Below, in pieces: positions 6,597 through 38,746 of a stretch of 46,475 bases of DNA. Source of the DNA: an uncultured Clostridia bacterium. GTDB lineage: Bacteria > Bacillota > Clostridia > TANB77 > CAG-508. The notes under the pieces are model-generated. The model saw only the letters and a list, made by a program, of their open reading frames with translations. It did no database searches and was not told the DNA's origin. Location: assembly GCA_944390535.1 (NCBI GenBank), contig CALXQV010000055.1:1-46475 (forward strand). Direction: 5' to 3'. Each line of letters begins with the position of its first letter. The first letter of the stretch is position 1. The position numbers were made by a program, and so were the translations under genes.

Positions 6597-7457
6597 ATGA
6601 TGATAAAAGAAATAAAAGTTAAAAATATACTAACAAAATCCAGTTTACCAGTATCAGACTATTCCGTTAATCCCTATGTTGGATGTTCACATGCGTGTAA
6701 ATATTGTTATGCTTCATTTATGAAAAGATTTACAAATCATCCTGAACAATGGGGAACGTTTGTAGATGTGAAGTATTGGGAAAAAATTAAAAATCCTAAA
6801 AAATATGCAGGAAAAGAATTATTTATTGGCTCTGTTACAGACCCCTATATGCCACTTGAAGAAAAATATAAAAGAACTAGAGCGTTACTAGAAGAAATGC
6901 AAGGAAGTGGTTGCAAAATTAGTATTGCAACAAAATCAGATTTAGTATTAAGAGATATAGATGTAATAAAAACATTTCCAGAAGCAAGGGTATCTTGGTC
7001 TATCAATACTTTAGATGAGGATTTTAGAAAAGAAATGGATTATTCCGTATCGATTGAAAGAAAAATAGAAGCAATGAAAAAATTTCATGAAGCTGGAGTT
7101 AGGACGGCTTGTTTTATTTCTCCAATTTTTCCTGGCATAACGGATATTAAAAGTATCATATTGAAAACAAAAGATTACTGTAATTTTGTATGGCTTGAAA
7201 ATTTGAATTTAAGAGGAGATTACAAGGCAATCATATTAAAATATATAAAAGAAAAATATTCTAAACTATATCCGATATATGATGAAATATATAATAAAGG
7301 TAAACGAGAGTATTGGGAAAATCTAAACCAAGAGATACAAGAATTTTGTAAGGAACAGAATTTAGAATATGTAAGAAATGATGACTCAATAAAAAGAGAA
7401 ATCAATGAACCGCCAATAGTTGTCAATTATTTTTATCACGAAGAAATTAAAAAATGA
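6597..7457 (+). CDS. Radical SAM protein, spore photoproduct lyase (SPL)-like family
   Basis: NPYVGCSHACKYCYA CxxxCxxC motif; GSVTDPY; ATKS. Confidence 0.85.
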   Translation: MMIKEIKVKNILTKSSLPVSDYSVNPYVGCSHACKYCYASFMKRFTNHPEQWGTFVDVKYWEKIKNPKKYAGKELFIGSVTDPYMPLEEKYKRTRALLEEMQGSGCKISIATKSDLVLRDIDVIKTFPEARVSWSINTLDEDFRKEMDYSVSIERKIEAMKKFHEAGVRTACFISPIFPGITDIKSIILKTKDYCNFVWLENLNLRGDYKAIILKYIKEKYSKLYPIYDEIYNKGKREYWENLNQEIQEFCKEQNLEYVRNDDSIKREINEPPIVVNYFYHEEIKK

Positions 7458-7491
7458 ACAAATTAAAAGAGTGTAAAGGAATGAGGTAGTT

Positions 7492-8442
7492 ATGATAGTA
7501 AATGTCGGAGGAAGAACAGATATCGTAAATTATTATAGTGAATGGTTAATGAACCGAATAAAAGAAGGATATGCATATTCCAGAAACCCATTATTTCAAA
7601 ATAATGTTTCCCAAATAAGCTTAAAACCAGAAAATGTAGATTTTCTTATGTTCTGTTCTAAAAACTATAAACCTATACTAAAATACATGAAGGAAATCAA
7701 TGAAACATATAGAATTATATGCCATTATACAATTACTGCTTATGGAAAAGATGTAGAACCAAATGTACCAAGTATTGATGATTCAATCGATACATTGATT
7801 AAACTTTCAAAAATCGTGGGAAAAGAAAAAGTATTATGGAGATATGATCCTATACTTTTGACAAAACATTATATTATACAAAAACATATTGAAACATTCC
7901 GCTATATGGCGGAAAAAATTAGCCCATATGTACAAAGATGTATTTTTAGTTTTGTTGAAATGTATAAAAAGCTAGAGTATAATATGCCAGAAATTATCCC
8001 ATTTACAAGTGAAGATAAAATCTTAATCGTAAGAGAATTAGGAAAAATTGCAAAAGAAAATCATTTATATATCCAAACTTGTGGAACAGATGAAAATTAT
8101 GAAAAATATGGAATTCATTTATCAGGTTGTACAACAACAGAAATTTTAGAGAAAGCAAACCATGTGAAATATAAAAACATAAAGGCAAAAGGAATGAGAA
8201 AAGGTTGCCATTGTATACCAAGTCGAGATATTGGTGCTTATGATACTTGTTTAAATGGATGCAAATATTGTTATGCAAATAAAAGACCAGACTTAGCACA
8301 GGAAAATGCAAAATTACATGATAAACATTCTCCACTTTTGATAGGAAATGTGAATAAAACAGACAAAATAACAACTGCAAAACAAAATAGTTTTATAAAA
8401 GAATTTTCTATAAATAAAGAAGAACAAATTCGTTTAATATAG
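7492..8442 (+). CDS. DUF1848 family protein (Fe-S, SPL-associated)
   Basis: MIVNVGGRTDI, WRYDPI and C-terminal C.C..SRDIGAYDTCLNGCKYCYAN motifs. Confidence 0.85.
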   Translation: MIVNVGGRTDIVNYYSEWLMNRIKEGYAYSRNPLFQNNVSQISLKPENVDFLMFCSKNYKPILKYMKEINETYRIICHYTITAYGKDVEPNVPSIDDSIDTLIKLSKIVGKEKVLWRYDPILLTKHYIIQKHIETFRYMAEKISPYVQRCIFSFVEMYKKLEYNMPEIIPFTSEDKILIVRELGKIAKENHLYIQTCGTDENYEKYGIHLSGCTTTEILEKANHVKYKNIKAKGMRKGCHCIPSRDIGAYDTCLNGCKYCYANKRPDLAQENAKLHDKHSPLLIGNVNKTDKITTAKQNSFIKEFSINKEEQIRLI

Positions 8443-8517
8443 AGACATATTATGTACACTATAAGGATTAAGAAAGTTGTAAAAAAATAAATTTTTTGAT
8501 TTTAGATTTAGCTTAAT

Positions 8518-8546
8518 TTGAATTTATCTGTTTTTTACTATATAGT
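8518..8546 (+). promoter_or_regulatory. SigmaA-type promoter for the small ORF at 8586
   Basis: TTGAAT-N17-TATAGT. Confidence 0.55.
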
Positions 8547-8585
8547 TGTGACAAAAGATAGTAAATCAGAAAGGAGGCAATTTAA

Positions 8586-8681
8586 ATGGTACAATATTTT
8601 TTAGCAATAGGTGGATTAGCAGTTGGATTTGTAATAGGTATGTTATATTCTGATTATAAACATAAAAAAGATAAAAAGTAA
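8586..8681 (+). CDS. 31-aa single-TM peptide MVQYFLAIGGLAVGFVIGMLYSDYKHKKDKK (absent from the ORF track)
   Basis: RBS AAAGGAGG 8 nt upstream, own promoter and downstream hairpin at 8701-8729. Confidence 0.7.
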   Translation: MVQYFLAIGGLAVGFVIGMLYSDYKHKKDKK

Positions 8682-8700
8682 TATAAATTACAGTTAATAG

Positions 8701-8733
8701 GACAGATAATCAAAGTGAATTTATCTGTCTTTT
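8701..8733 (+). terminator. Intrinsic terminator of the small ORF
   Basis: GACAGATAA / TTATCTGTC stem followed by TTTT. Confidence 0.6.
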
Positions 8734-8742
8734 AATATACAT

Positions 8743-8872
8743 AATTGTTCATGAAAACGACTAAACTTAGCAAAAGAACATGCAAAGTTACAAGATAGAA
8801 ATTTTTTAGTTTTGATAAGAAACCTTAATAAAGCAGACAAAATAACAATCGAAAAACATTATTAGTTATTTT
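8743..8872 (+). pseudogene. Degenerate copy of the 3' end of the DUF1848 gene
   Basis: Aligns by eye with ~8266-8398 (acttagca..atgcaaa.ttaca.gata...ttttgata.gaaa...aataaa.cagacaaaataacaa). Confidence 0.7.
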
Positions 8873-9044
8873 AAAAAATATATAAGTTAGAAAAAGTAAA
8901 AGGAGAAGCATGAAGTGTTTCCCCTTAAAATATATTTAATTTTTATATATTTAAAAATTTTTAATAAAATAATGATTCTTTTTCTAGCATTTTTATTGAA
9001 AAATGCATAACTGAAATTTAAGATAAAGTATAAAAATCATAGAG

Positions 9045-9243
9045 TTCAAAACTCTAAGAAGATTTTTTATATTTCAATTTTAGCAATAAAATATGTTGAA
9101 GTCAATGAAAATTTTAAAAAAATTTTAAAGAAAATATATATTAAAAAAATAAAAAATATTTTGAAAATTTTTTGATTAAAAACGTTAGAAAACCTTAAAT
9201 AACAACGCTTTAAAAAAATATCAAATCTTCTTAGAGTTTTGAA
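9045..9243. promoter_or_regulatory. Candidate invertible promoter cassette 1 (OFF orientation)
   Basis: Perfect 21-bp inverted repeat: TTCAAAACTCTAAGAAGATTT (9045-9065) and its reverse complement (9223-9243), enclosing a minus-strand promoter. Confidence 0.8.
9077..9105 (-). promoter_or_regulatory. SigmaA promoter inside cassette 1, pointing away from the pilin gene
   Basis: Minus strand TTGACT-N17-TAAAAT with extended -10 TG. Confidence 0.8.
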
Positions 9244-9367
9244 ATATAGGTAAAAAAACAAAAAATAAAATAGTATTGAATATGGAGTTATTTCTAATCA
9301 TAAATAAACCTAAAACCAAAGAATACATAATTAACAAAAATAAGAAACAAAAGGGGAATTTTAAGGA

Positions 9368-10591
9368 ATGAATAAATTTAGAAAAACAAAAAAGAAAAAG
9401 AATAATGGCATCACTCTAATTGCATTAATCATTACAATTATTATATTATTGATTTTAACAGGTGTAACGATTGCGACCTTAACAGGAGAAGATGGAATTT
9501 TAGAAAAAGCAACCAATGCAAGTGAAAAAACCAAAAAAGCCAATGCAGAAGAACAAGTAAAATTAGCAATAACAGCAAGTATAAAGCAAGATGGAAAGAG
9601 TGATTTAGAAGAGTTAAATACTGAGTTAGAGAAAATAGAAGGGCTGACATATAATAATGTTCCCATATCAGATAGAAATACAATAGAACTGCTACCAGCG
9701 ACAGTTAATGTAGATGGATATGATATTATTATTGACATAGACTTTGAGGAAATTATACCCCTTGTACCAGAAGGATTTTACCGTGTGAAAGGGACAACGA
9801 TAAAGAAAGGATTTGTTATTTCAGATGTAGAAGGAGATGATGTGAATAATACAAAAGGCGGAAACCAATATGTATGGATACCAGTCGATGGAATCTTAGG
9901 AGAAGATGGAAAAACCATACAAAATGCAGTTGATGGAGAAATTATATTAGGAAGATATACATTTAGTAGAAATGGAAAGATAAATACAAATTTGGTTCCA
10001 ACAACATTAGGAGGAGAAATAAAAATATATAATGAATTTACTGTGACAGAAACTTCTATAGGAAAAGGAAATACTACAGCAAAAGATATAAATGCATTTA
10101 TTAATAGTGTAAGAGAAAATGGAGGATACTATATTGCAAGATTTGAGGCAAGTAAAAATTCAAATACCAATAAAGCAGAAAGTAAATATAATAAGACTGT
10201 TTGGAATAATATAAGTCAACAAAATGCAGCAATAGCATGTCAAAATCTATATGCGGATGTAAATAGTGATTTAATAAATAGTTACGCATGGGACACAGCA
10301 ACCTTGTTTATACAAAAGTATGGAAAAACTGATTATTCATTTGAATATGGAGTATCATTTGGTTCATCATTACAAAGAACAGGTTTATCAAGAGATGTAC
10401 AATTAAATATTTATGATATGGCGGGAAATTGTTTTGAATGGACAACAGAAACTGGTAGTGACTCTAACAAGGCTGGTGTAGTTAGAGGAGGTGATTATTA
10501 TAACAAAAATGATTATATGAATGTTCGCAACTGGTCTAACCCATCTGTTACTTTTAACCAAGGTTCTTTTCGCCCAATTTTGTATTTCTAG
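9368..10591 (+). CDS. Pilin-like protein (class III signal peptide) with a C-terminal FGE-sulfatase/C-type-lectin-fold domain; probable DGR-type target
   Basis: Basic leader then G|ITLIALIITIIILLIL; GNQYVWIPV; GGYYIARFEAS; IYDMAGNCFEWT...RGG...SFRPILY at the extreme C-terminus. Confidence 0.8.
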   Translation: MNKFRKTKKKKNNGITLIALIITIIILLILTGVTIATLTGEDGILEKATNASEKTKKANAEEQVKLAITASIKQDGKSDLEELNTELEKIEGLTYNNVPISDRNTIELLPATVNVDGYDIIIDIDFEEIIPLVPEGFYRVKGTTIKKGFVISDVEGDDVNNTKGGNQYVWIPVDGILGEDGKTIQNAVDGEIILGRYTFSRNGKINTNLVPTTLGGEIKIYNEFTVTETSIGKGNTTAKDINAFINSVRENGGYYIARFEASKNSNTNKAESKYNKTVWNNISQQNAAIACQNLYADVNSDLINSYAWDTATLFIQKYGKTDYSFEYGVSFGSSLQRTGLSRDVQLNIYDMAGNCFEWTTETGSDSNKAGVVRGGDYYNKNDYMNVRNWSNPSVTFNQGSFRPILYF

Positions 10592-10713
10592 AAGTGTATA
10601 ATCCATAGTATTAAGGTCAAAGGTTGAAATATTTTTTATATAGAGAACATAGGAAAAAGAATGTAATTTTAGCAATTTAAAAAAGCAGAAACTAGATATT
10701 AAAATTTTACGTT

Positions 10714-10754
10714 ATAGTAAGTATAAGTAATTAAAAAATATACTTACTATTTTT
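10714..10754 (+). terminator. Intrinsic terminator after pilin-like gene 1
   Basis: ATAGTAAGTATA / TATACTTACTAT stem plus T-run. Confidence 0.6.
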
Positions 10755-10804
10755 ATATATACATAATAGGAAACTAGACAAAAATGTGATATAGTTTTAT
10801 CTAC

Positions 10805-10820
10805 CTTACAAAAATGTCAT
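10805..10820. promoter_or_regulatory. Putative BceR-type binding site upstream of the response regulator
   Basis: CTTACA-AAAA-TGTCAT; same ACA-N4-TGT core as the site at 12647. Confidence 0.45.
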
Positions 10821-10865
10821 TTAAAAACCAAAAAAATATGATATAATCATGTTGGAGGGAAAAAC

Positions 10866-11537
10866 ATGCAAAAAATATTAATAGTAGAAGATGACAAAAA
10901 AATACGAAGTGAACTAGAAACATTTTTAAACAAAAATGGATTTGAAGCAAAAAGCCTAGAAAACTTTGAAAATACCATTCAAGACATATTACAAGAAAAT
11001 GCAGACTTGGTATTGCTAGACATCAATTTACCATATACAGATGGAGAATTTGTATGTAAAGAATTAAGGAAAACATCAGATGTTCCAATTATTATGGTAA
11101 CGAGTAGAGATAATGAAATTGATGAATTAATGAGTTTAAATTATGGGGCAGACCAATATGTAACAAAACCATATAATATCCAGATATTACTTGCGAAAAT
11201 AAATGGCTTATTAAAAAGAAATCAAAAGTCAGAAAAAGATATACAAAAAATAGATTGTAATGATTTTTACTTAAATATAGCAGAAAGAGTCATCGAAAAA
11301 GAAGAGCAAAAGATAGAATTAACCAAAAATGAATATAGCATTTTATACTATTTAAGTATCAATAAAGGGAAAGTGGTATCCAGAGATGAAATCATGGACT
11401 ATTTATGGGAAAGCCAAGAATTTATAGATGACAATACATTAAGTGTTAATATCAAAAGATTAAGAGATAAGCTAGATGCACTAGGACTAGTAAATAGAAT
11501 TGAAACTAGGAGAGGACAAGGGTATTTATTAAAATGA
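10866..11537 (+). CDS. OmpR-family response regulator (BceR/GraR-like)
   Basis: ILIVEDD receiver start, LLDINLP, KP motif, winged-helix ETRRGQGY. Confidence 0.92.
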   Translation: MQKILIVEDDKKIRSELETFLNKNGFEAKSLENFENTIQDILQENADLVLLDINLPYTDGEFVCKELRKTSDVPIIMVTSRDNEIDELMSLNYGADQYVTKPYNIQILLAKINGLLKRNQKSEKDIQKIDCNDFYLNIAERVIEKEEQKIELTKNEYSILYYLSINKGKVVSRDEIMDYLWESQEFIDDNTLSVNIKRLRDKLDALGLVNRIETRRGQGYLLK

Positions 11538-12553
11538 AATTTAAAGATTTTATAAAAGAAAAAATGATGTTGATAGTAGGTATATTTTTAGCTTTAGCTA
11601 GTGTAGAAATATTATTACTTGCCTATCATATTGGAATATTGGTAAGAGTATATTGTGCATGCATTGTCATACTGGTTGTAGCACTTGCCATTTTTATAGA
11701 ATATAAAAGAAAAAAACACTACTATGATGAATTAATGAATCATATGGGAGAATTAACAGAAAAATACTTAATCTCAGAAATCATAAAAACACCTAATTTT
11801 ATCGAAGGAAAAATATTAAAAGAAATTCTACAAGATACAGGAAAATCCATGTTAGAAAATGTGAATAAGTATAAAAAGATACAAGAAGAATATAAAGAAT
11901 ATATCGAATTATGGATTCATGAGGTTAAAATACCTATTGCAGCCAGTAAATTAATTATAGAGAATAATAAAAATGAGATTACAAAAAGTATAGAAGAAGA
12001 ATTAGATAAAGTAGAAAACTATACAGAACAAGCCCTATTTTATGCTAGAAGTAATGCAGTAGAAAAAGATTATATTATAACCAAAACCAACTTAAAAGAA
12101 ATTGTTAATGGAGCTATTTTAAAAAATAAAACCACCTTACTTAATGAAAAAGTATCCATAGAATTAACAGATTTGAAACCAGAAGAAATATATACAGATA
12201 ATAAGTGGGGAATATTTATAGTTAATCAAATTATACAAAATGCTATTAAATATTCCAAAAAAGAAGATAAAAGAATTATCATTTCCTCAAAAGAAAAAAA
12301 TGATAAAGTCATTTTATATATCAAAGATAATGGTATAGGAATTAAAAAAGGAGAAATTACAAGAGTATTTGAAAGAGGATTTACAGGAGAAAATGGCAGA
12401 AGAATGGGGCAGAAATCAACAGGAATCGGCTTATATTTATGCAAAAAGCTATGTGATAAGTTAGGTTTAGGAATAGAATTGAATGCAGAAAAAGAGGAAG
12501 GAACAGAAGTTAGAATTATCTTTCCTAAAAATAGTTATACCATTTTTAAATAG
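11534..12553 (+). CDS. Intramembrane-sensing histidine kinase (BceS/GraS-like)
   Basis: Two closely spaced TMs, WIHEVKIP H-box, NAIKYS, DNGIGI, STGIGLYL. Confidence 0.92.
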   Translation: MKFKDFIKEKMMLIVGIFLALASVEILLLAYHIGILVRVYCACIVILVVALAIFIEYKRKKHYYDELMNHMGELTEKYLISEIIKTPNFIEGKILKEILQDTGKSMLENVNKYKKIQEEYKEYIELWIHEVKIPIAASKLIIENNKNEITKSIEEELDKVENYTEQALFYARSNAVEKDYIITKTNLKEIVNGAILKNKTTLLNEKVSIELTDLKPEEIYTDNKWGIFIVNQIIQNAIKYSKKEDKRIIISSKEKNDKVILYIKDNGIGIKKGEITRVFERGFTGENGRRMGQKSTGIGLYLCKKLCDKLGLGIELNAEKEEGTEVRIIFPKNSYTIFK

Positions 12554-33464: not shown

Positions 33465-33971
33465 ATGAAAAAAGTATATGAAAACGTAAAAAATAATGAA
33501 ACAGGAATTACCATATTGGCTTTGGTTATTACAATTATCGTTTTACTTATACTAGCAGGTATAACCATGAATATGGGAAAACAAGGGATAAAAGAAAGTA
33601 AAGAAGATGCCAAATTAACGGAATTGGCTATGGTTCAAAATGCAGTGTTACAAAGAAAAACGAAGGCAGATTTAACAGGTGAAGAATACCCAGGACAGAA
33701 AATTACAGAAGCAGGAGTCGACCTAGATAATGTAATAGGAGATATCAATGATAATAAAGACACAGGAGAAGACGCTGTTACAAGGAAAGACAGCAATAAT
33801 GAGCATTATTATCTTTTAACAGAAACCAATGATGGATTAAATGGTTTAGGAATTACCAATTCAGAAGATGCATATATTGTAAATTATGAGACAGGAGAAG
33901 TTATTAATTATACAACAAAATTAACAGGAACAGGAAAACCTTTATATATCTATGCAAAAGAAGCAAACTAA
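33465..33971 (+). CDS. Short pilin-like protein (class III signal peptide)
   Basis: G|ITILALVITIIVLLILAG; C-terminal YIVNYETGEV. Confidence 0.75.
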   Translation: MKKVYENVKNNETGITILALVITIIVLLILAGITMNMGKQGIKESKEDAKLTELAMVQNAVLQRKTKADLTGEEYPGQKITEAGVDLDNVIGDINDNKDTGEDAVTRKDSNNEHYYLLTETNDGLNGLGITNSEDAYIVNYETGEVINYTTKLTGTGKPLYIYAKEAN

Positions 33972-38625: not shown

Positions 38626-38746
38626 GGGAATTTGGGGACGGCCTCATTTTTCCCTTTTTAATGTTATAAATAAAAAAATATAGAATATAAAATTTTTTCT
38701 TAGCCAATTTAAAAAAAGGGAAAAATGAGGCCGTCCCCAAATTCCC
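38626..38746. repeat. GC-rich 34-bp perfect inverted repeat element (REP-doublet/MITE-like)
   Basis: GGGAATTTGGGGACGGCCTCATTTTTCCCTTTTT (38626-38659) and its reverse complement (38713-38746) around a 53-bp AT-rich spacer. Confidence 0.8.

Follow-up and report, generated by a model that had tools for sequence, protein, structure and literature searches.

Positions 9045-9243 of the 46,475-nucleotide contig CALXQV010000055.1 from an uncultured Clostridia bacterium (the window, here, is this whole contig) very probably constitute an invertible promoter, or inverton, which is OFF as assembled, is flipped by a recombinase acting in trans and controls the pilin-like gene at 9368-10591. The evidence lies in the anatomy of the element (cassette 1), in a family of paralogous cassettes, in orthologous loci of other species at which cassettes of the family occur in both orientations, and in the co-variation of the centres of paired recombination sites.

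In the mechanism proposed, a site-specific enzyme, most probably a tyrosine recombinase, would exchange strands within the 7-bp centres of two inverted core sites, flipping the 157-bp segment between them. In the OFF state the promoter would fire leftwards into a hairpin and U-run at the left site; after inversion (ON), transcription would run rightwards through the weaker right site and a leader of ~150 nt into 9368-10591. With many such cassettes lying before members of a 30-gene family, cells would show varying subsets of surface proteins.

Anatomy of cassette 1

An exact search of the window finds the perfect 21-bp inverted repeat TTCAAAACTCTAAGAAGATTT at 9045-9065 (+) and 9223-9243 (-), enclosing 157 bp of AT-rich sequence (9066-9222) in an element of 199 bp overall, just as described in an earlier note made from the letters of the window. 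The 21-mer matches three times in the window, where 0.01 matches are expected by chance, and three or more matches occur in none of 100 shuffles; the third match, at 26660 with 3 mismatches, is part of a second cassette. In a scan of the whole window, which listed 13 inverted pairs, the two cassettes are pairs I3 and I4. The repeat of cassette 1 lengthens imperfectly to 35 nt (9040-9074 / 9214-9248, 86%), and its left copy consists of a 7-bp centre, TTCAAAA (9045-9051), followed by the inner arm CTCTAAGAA and GATTT (9052-9065). The note had judged the spacer too long for a terminator loop; the arms are indeed 157 nt apart, and a terminator scan of 8400-9500 gave 0 sites. No Rfam family covers the cassette region.

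The near-consensus extended -10 promoter that the note had placed on the minus strand close to the left repeat is found there, 12 nt inside the repeat, as TTGACT-17-(TG)C-TAAAAT at 9105-9077: the -35 hexamer TTGACT (9105-9100) is followed by a 17-nt spacer, with TG at 9085-9084, and by the -10 hexamer TAAAAT (9082-9077). It scores 10/12 and is the sole TG-extended match in the scan. As assembled, its predicted start lies near 9070 on the minus strand and it faces away from 9368-10591, which is the OFF state that the note had assigned. Mirrored about the repeats, the -10 hexamer would come to lie at 9206-9211 (+) and the predicted start at ~9218, some 150 nt upstream of the ATG (9368) and facing it; here, too, the coordinates agree with the note. 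A ribosome-binding site (GGGGA/AAGGA) precedes this ATG, the leader is partly conserved among paralogues, and a promoter scan found no strong plus-strand promoter in the leader (9244-9367).

A family of cassettes in the same genome

The window is contig C55 of a metagenome-assembled genome (MAG; G000) of 1.71 Mb in 72 contigs, 84.6% complete. Pairs of the 10-nt core of the inverted repeats (IRs) alone recover 11 intact cassettes in this MAG. In all 11 the IRs are perfect over 18-24 bp, the inner segments measure 155-168 bp, and the promoter is present 12-30 nt from one IR, its -10 hexamer being TAAAAT in nine and TAGAAT in two. Their alignment shows conservation of the IRs, of the promoter and of a short motif near the other end; the middle varies. 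Cassette 2, which lies in the same window, aligns to cassette 1 with 79% column identity.

A pilin-like gene with the start ...GITLIALVITIIVLLIL adjoins ten of the 11 intact cassettes, the exception being the one on contig C44, and also a decayed twelfth copy on contig C59. Seven cassettes of this genome are OFF and three ON (on C4, C41 and C12), the C44 cassette has no recognised gene, and the C59 copy has no partner IR. This last copy (G000:C59:17430-17640) keeps the promoter and the IR on the non-gene side, while its gene-side IR is decayed and has lost the GAGT core; judging by its sequence, it looks naturally locked OFF.

The cassettes on C44 (22419-22768) and C4 (33124-33476) have 149 bp of flank in common (98%) together with a near-identical cassette, after which the two diverge; both flanks of the C44 cassette are of the 'non-gene' type, and the shared flank overlaps a dispersed repeat. 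A duplication, an assembly join in the dispersed repeat or recombination between cassettes could each account for this. Two more dispersed repeats of ~170 bp (C4:33007-33182 and C43:21920-22088) occur in many copies (82-95%) on many contigs. The window also contains a perfect GC-rich inverted repeat of 34 nt, its arms 53 nt apart (38626-38746), which has 121 BLAST high-scoring segment pairs across the MAG; it is an element resembling a miniature inverted-repeat transposable element (MITE) or a repetitive extragenic palindrome (REP), unrelated to the cassettes.

Inversion in place at orthologous loci

Foreign copies were sought in species-representative genomes with a pattern of the promoter plus one IR arm, and 80 of the 99 stretches were compared as loci; their source is 15 assemblies with titles of uncultured Clostridia, Clostridium or Eubacteriales, together with a Lachnospiraceae bin. 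Including the MAG's own, there are 94 promoter-IR ends, of which 84 have a partner IR 100-300 nt away. Among these 84 two-ended cassettes, 57 are OFF and 16 ON, ten have no recognised gene (several of them standing at contig ends) and one has genes on both sides; 73 adjoin one gene family.

The orientation differs between orthologous loci. L091 (OFF) and L125 (ON), from different assemblies, are colinear at 92% over ~1200 bp, except that positions 495-705, which are exactly the cassette, align in reverse with 99% identity along 211 bp. In the pair L073/L119 the flanks match on the plus strand (82-92%) and the inner segment on the minus strand (82.5% over 240 bp); the pairs L097/L112 and L076/L087, as well as the C43b cassette of this MAG and L120, give the same picture of an inverted cassette. 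Upstream of cassette 2 lies an AMP-binding gene with an orthologue (86%) in L079, a locus of another species that has an ON cassette close by. On these alignments, cassettes of the family do invert, with breakpoints at the IRs. Homologous loci are not all in one orientation, ON and OFF being found at orthologous loci such as L091 and L125. The 'invertible promoter' of the note stands as regards its anatomy and the inversion of its family; for this very copy, inversion is what the comparison of sequences would predict.

The recombination site

A consensus of the site, drawn from both ends of 83 cassettes aligned inner side first, consists of an invariant inner arm TTCTTAGAG(T), a 7-bp centre and a degenerate outer arm nTCTAAGnA. 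The outer arm is inverted relative to the inner one, the two standing around the centre, of which the five middle positions vary among cassettes before an invariant A and the outer arm, T.TA.G.

For a test of the centre, partner ends were paired by the invariant arm only and the next 6 nt were compared. The two ends agree in all 6 nt in 82 of 84 cassettes, among which 34 different 6-mers occur; when the ends are re-paired at random (2000 trials), the matches average 11.1 and never exceed 20 of 84. Tyrosine recombinases need an identical centre of 6-8 bp in partner sites, and small serine invertases need a match of only 2 bp. The matched 6-nt centres fit the overlap region of a tyrosine recombinase, and the sites have what is expected of a tyrosine-recombinase core site, inverted arms and a centre matched at both ends. 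The differing centres would keep the dozen cassettes from recombining with each other. A small serine invertase (~190 aa) was not found: the 6 matches to PF00239 (Resolvase) in this MAG, itself 84.6% complete, are all frames of 473-630 aa, and five cassette-bearing relatives yield one serine recombinase frame below 300 aa (224 aa, in G010), which is not shared.

A terminator-like hairpin on the non-gene side

Whichever way the inner segment points, the flanks beyond the IRs keep their places, and the two differ. In the flank away from the gene, the outer arm can pair with the inner arm and is followed by a T-run; the flank towards the gene pairs poorly and runs on into an A-rich leader. The 42-nt RNA running outwards folds with a mean of -9.8 kcal/mol on the non-gene side versus -4.8 kcal/mol on the gene side (72 cassettes). 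For cassette 1 the leftward RNA reaches -9.5 kcal/mol (z -2.37; 6 of 200 shuffles are as good) and the gene side -3.8. Cassette 2 has no such hairpin, and the hairpin is thus a tendency, not a rule. Where present, it may act as a built-in terminator of the OFF transcript and as an insulator against read-through from upstream.

The controlled gene and its family

The features of both cassettes in the window are collected in Table 1.

Table 1. Coordinates of cassettes 1 and 2 and of the associated features in the window.
Feature	Position	Strand	Remarks
Terminator-like hairpin and U-run, left site, predicted for the OFF-state transcript	9026..9076	-	-9.5 kcal/mol
Outer (flank-side) arm, left recombination site	9036..9044	.	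ATCATAGAG, imperfect inverted copy of the inner arm
Left inverted repeat (IRL), 21 bp	9045..9065	+	Exact reverse complement of 9223-9243
Invertible AT-rich segment, 157 bp	9066..9222	.	155-168 bp in 11/11 cassettes of this genome
Predicted sigma-A-type promoter, TTGACT-17-TGCTAAAAT	9077..9105	-	Would fire leftwards, away from the gene (OFF)
Right inverted repeat (IRR), 21 bp	9223..9243	-	Exact search
Leader, switch to start codon	9244..9367	+	Would be 5' untranslated region (~150 nt) if ON
Controlled gene, 407 aa, pilin-like N-terminus KNNGITLIALIITIIILLIL, variable C-terminal domain	9368..10591	+	Profile searches
Cassette 2	26658..26848	.	18-bp perfect IRs 26658-26675 / 26831-26848; OFF
Predicted promoter of cassette 2	26720-26692	-	Same promoter as cassette 1
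Gene controlled by cassette 2, 429 aa, same pilin-like N-terminus	26948..28237	+	

The 407-aa protein begins lysine-rich and continues with GITLIALIITIIILLIL. The match of this protein (P0001) to the Pfam family N_methyl is 18.2 bits against a cut-off of 21.2 (E 0.0019), and that of P0002 is 13.4 bits. Type IV pilins typically have Glu at position +5 after the Gly of the cleavage site; at the fifth residue after Gly (G-ITLIA), 28 of 30 members of the family have Ala and 2 have Ser. The label 'pilin' given to the gene in the note therefore holds for a pilin-like N-terminus only, as the N_methyl match is below its cut-off and position +5 is Ala, not Glu. The genome does encode a prepilin peptidase (Peptidase_A24 at C65:15384-15722) and T2SSE ATPases of the PilB/PilT type (C15:65491-66624 and 66696-67517).

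Nothing further identifies the protein: a Pfam search gives no match above cut-off (in the C-terminal domain, a hint of FGE-sulfatase, E 0.024, below cut-off), NCBIfam a weak FliL match far below cut-off, and a PDB sequence search chance-level matches to Rab proteins (E 0.047 or worse); the nearest Atlas clusters are 'hypothetical protein' of Bacillota.

The MAG holds 30 pilin-like N-termini of this family. Some occur without a cassette for each gene, in tandem arrays of ~4 pilin-like paralogues of 413-421 aa (C14:32100-37415 and C50:795-6159; also on C37, C57 and C65). In the window, a 168-aa open reading frame (33465-33971), which precedes murB-like and cofD-like genes, has the related N-terminus GITILALVITIIVLLIL, with neither a cassette nor a Pfam match.

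The genes neighbouring cassettes 1 and 2 in the window are ordinary chromosomal ones, among them DUF1848, a two-component system, ABC transporters, an AMP-binding enzyme, a TrmB-like methyltransferase and CTP synthase. In the intergenic region to the left of cassette 1, the 3' end of the DUF1848 gene is copied in a 104-nt direct repeat (8281-8384 and 8755-8858, 79%), and a motif of a hairpin with a T-run occurs twice (8519-8542 and 8716-8739).

A candidate recombinase

No recombinase was found within the 80 cassette loci, and the enzyme would therefore act in trans. An adjacent recombinase was rejected as a source of the activity, since tblastn with the 9 recombinases of this MAG gave only weak matches, in 3 of the 80 loci. 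The tyrosine-type and integrase-like enzymes encoded in the MAG are XerD (above its NCBIfam cut-off), a Xer-like paralogue, three integrase-like genes and one tyrosine recombinase gene that is split. The Xer-like paralogue, an XerC-like gene (C12:4994-5977), may be the invertase, but its presence in 61 of 61 genus genomes searched, whether cassette-positive or not, does not single it out. An integrase of 529 aa (C58:2796-4385) was rejected as mobile, with close orthologues (84-95%) in cassette-negative genomes and none found in G010 or G173.

The best candidate is the split gene, an orphan tyrosine recombinase (G000:C15:28630-29563); that it has the same clade distribution as the cassettes is suggestive only. 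The cassette pattern occurs in 7 of the 151 genus genomes drawn (G000, G010, G173, G180, G182, G189 and G265) and in none of 120 genomes drawn elsewhere in the family. The split gene has orthologues of at least 83% identity in 6 of these 7 genomes and in 0 of the 144 others, where the best match has 53%. Among the 15 cassette-bearing assemblies reached through the loci, 13 have an orthologue (77-93%); in the other two, one of which is titled Lachnospiraceae, the cassettes sit on short contigs of 3-5 kb, so that mis-binning is possible. One further genome, G192 (80% complete), has a Xer-like protein 97% identical to that of this MAG and neither the cassette pattern nor the split gene. Judged by size and score, what the five relatives examined all have is XerD, the Xer-like gene and the split gene alone. 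The positive genomes are closely related, so that the shared distribution counts as only one or two events in evolution.

The neighbours of the split gene are a sigma factor, SpoIID, an M23 peptidase, YchF, a sortase, MarR and ABC transporters, with no prophage. An intact orthologue, P0003 of 310 aa, combines a SAM-like N-domain with a Phage_integrase catalytic domain; among proteins of solved structure, its best match is Int (entries 6en0/6emy).

In this MAG, ten consecutive T interrupt the gene. A run of T9-T11 stands at the same spot in all 14 orthologues, of which 3 are in frame (G285, G290 and G298, the last being G010) and 11 out of frame. The 84 codons after the run, the catalytic C-terminal part, which include HxLRH and the region of the terminal Tyr, are open in 14 of 14 and 95% identical. 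Across the 14 orthologues the codon changes after the run are 2359 synonymous to 362 non-synonymous, and before the run 3800 to 2487; on these counts the downstream 84 codons are under strong purifying selection. Codons kept in this way, unlike those of a pseudogene, suggest that the T tract is bypassed, by slippage in replication, transcription or translation.

These observations lead to a proposal that we hold only tentatively, and rather doubt than believe: a two-tier stochastic switch, in which the product of G000:C15:28630-29563 is the invertase acting in trans and is itself frame-gated by the slippery T9-T11 tract. Slippage in DNA, RNA or translation would then yield rare bursts of invertase; each burst would reshuffle which pilin-like genes are ON, and the pattern would stay frozen until the next.

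Alternative explanations

Several observations weigh against 9045-9243 being a working switch. Its flipping is something we infer from the comparison of the family: among the 80 loci compared there is no orthologue of the flanks of cassette 1, and an exact scan of metagenome contigs for the 21-mer gave 2 stretches, which are unrelated and hold a single copy of the word each. The 82 foreign copies carry the promoter and one arm by construction, leaving the partner IR, the gene and the orientation free to vary. Promoter-like matches in the AT-rich stretch number 12 versus 8.7 +/- 2.9 in shuffles, which alone is not significant; the promoter match draws its weight from being conserved in the paralogous cassettes. 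The functions of promoter and terminator are predictions read from the sequence. The gene-side outer arm of cassette 1 fits the consensus poorly, no recombinase stands beside the cassettes, and the candidate recombinase is out of frame in this assembly, so that flipping may be rare.

Several of these points would suit an explanation in which the family inverted, or still inverts elsewhere, and this copy is fixed OFF, its gene being silent or driven otherwise: the 80 loci include no orthologue of its flanks, the candidate recombinase is frameshifted here, the gene-side outer arm matches poorly, and a paralogue, the C59 copy, is visibly decayed and locked. In a BLAST search of relatives, 27 of 41 genomes match, mostly in the conserved N-terminal coding part, with the cassette clear only in G010; neither these 41 genomes nor the 80 loci have an orthologue of the arrangement of DUF1848, cassette and gene. 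Cassette 1 is, however, unlike the decayed copy: its two IRs agree at all 21 bp, the invariant arm and the matched centre among them, and its promoter hexamers are intact. We consider a fixed copy unlikely.

A MITE-like element, with terminal inverted repeats and an outward promoter, could have been inserted either way without ever flipping in place, and a length of ~200 bp, terminal IRs, 12 copies per genome and the presence of other dispersed palindromic repeats in the genome (e.g. 38626-38746) agree with this. Against it, 73 of the 84 cassettes lie beside one gene family; the homology runs past the IRs on both sides, asymmetrically; orthologous loci differ by an exact inversion in place at 99% identity; independent decay of transposon ends would not give centres that co-vary in 82 of 84 cassettes with 34 variants; and no direct target duplication is seen next to the IRs (by eye only). 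This makes insertion without flipping very unlikely. Just as remote, or slightly more so, is a static regulatory region whose repeats are operator or terminator palindromes bound by a regulator, with no rearrangement. Each site is indeed palindromic, and the non-gene side folds as a hairpin with a U-run; IRL and IRR, however, are 157 bp apart, too far for the stem-loop of a terminator, and a static region leaves unexplained the reversed cassettes at orthologous loci, the mixture of ON and OFF, and the matching of centres between distant ends.

Relation to known systems

The closest known design, by analogy, is that of the mpl (P35) lipoproteins of Mycoplasma penetrans, in which an invertible promoter of its own precedes most of the 38 genes (Horino et al., 2003, as described in PMC2268961). 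The two share a large dispersed family of surface proteins with small invertible promoters of their own and independent switching, and the mpl tyrosine recombinases are encoded elsewhere in the genome. The differences are those of phylum and of product, lipoproteins in mpl versus pilin-like proteins here; the likeness is one of design, and inversion of mpl was shown experimentally, where here it is inferred by comparison.

The RecV switches of C. difficile (cwpV, flgB, cmrRST and pdcB) likewise belong to the class Clostridia and place short segments bounded by IRs upstream of surface and motility genes, with one tyrosine recombinase acting in trans on several switches. These switches are few and unrelated in sequence, and some do not act through promoter orientation; here, in contrast, there are 12 homologous cassettes with the same promoter in each. 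Mpi of Bacteroides fragilis and the inversions of its capsular-polysaccharide promoters are mentioned in PMC2268961. Mpi is a small serine invertase that acts globally. The promoters it flips resemble the present cassettes in being many and dispersed, with shared IR motifs, a combinatorial surface and a gut commensal as host. Unlike in the Mpi system, the serine recombinases here are large and the matched 7-bp centre fits a tyrosine enzyme. In E. coli, fimS is an invertible promoter of a pilus subunit gene, switched ON and OFF in phase variation by the FimB-FimE tyrosine recombinases; it is a single switch with adjacent recombinase genes and IRs of 9 bp. Unlike fimS, the present system has many switches, no adjacent recombinase in 80 loci, and IRs of 18-24 bp.

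Invertible promoters are already well known in gut bacteria, including Clostridia, and this family is a further example. The element class is the same as in catalogues of the PhaseFinder type (PMC11892184) and in DeepInverton (PMC11602134). According to PMC11892184, there are inverton groups dominated by Clostridia, and one group is linked to a group of tyrosine recombinases; the words 'pilin' and 'pili' have 0 occurrences in that paper, and 'pilin', 'Clostridi' and 'chicken' have 0 in PMC11602134. The literature searches made gave no mention of this cassette family or of a homopolymer-gated invertase; the supplementary tables of the inverton surveys may list the family.

Implications

The window is represented in sequencing runs beyond this assembly: of 23 runs listed, 20 contain part of 6600-12500, and in 5 runs half or more of the sampled words are present. 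The runs belong to 9 studies and are mostly labelled chicken gut metagenome (all as Logan contigs).

The cassettes define, by sequence, an inverton regulon in an uncultured lineage of small-genome Clostridia, which the run records place in chicken guts. In this regulon the site can be recognised by its arms and 7-bp centre, a promoter and often also a terminator are predicted to be built in, and the target family numbers ~30 pilin-like surface proteins. If the recombinase gated by the T tract is the invertase, slipped-strand tracts and DNA inversion would be joined in one hierarchy. For organisms not yet in culture, the arrangement predicts combinatorial variation of the surface, which may bear on adhesion and on evasion of phages or of immunity; and the exactness of the cassette pattern lets ON and OFF states be read directly from metagenomes.

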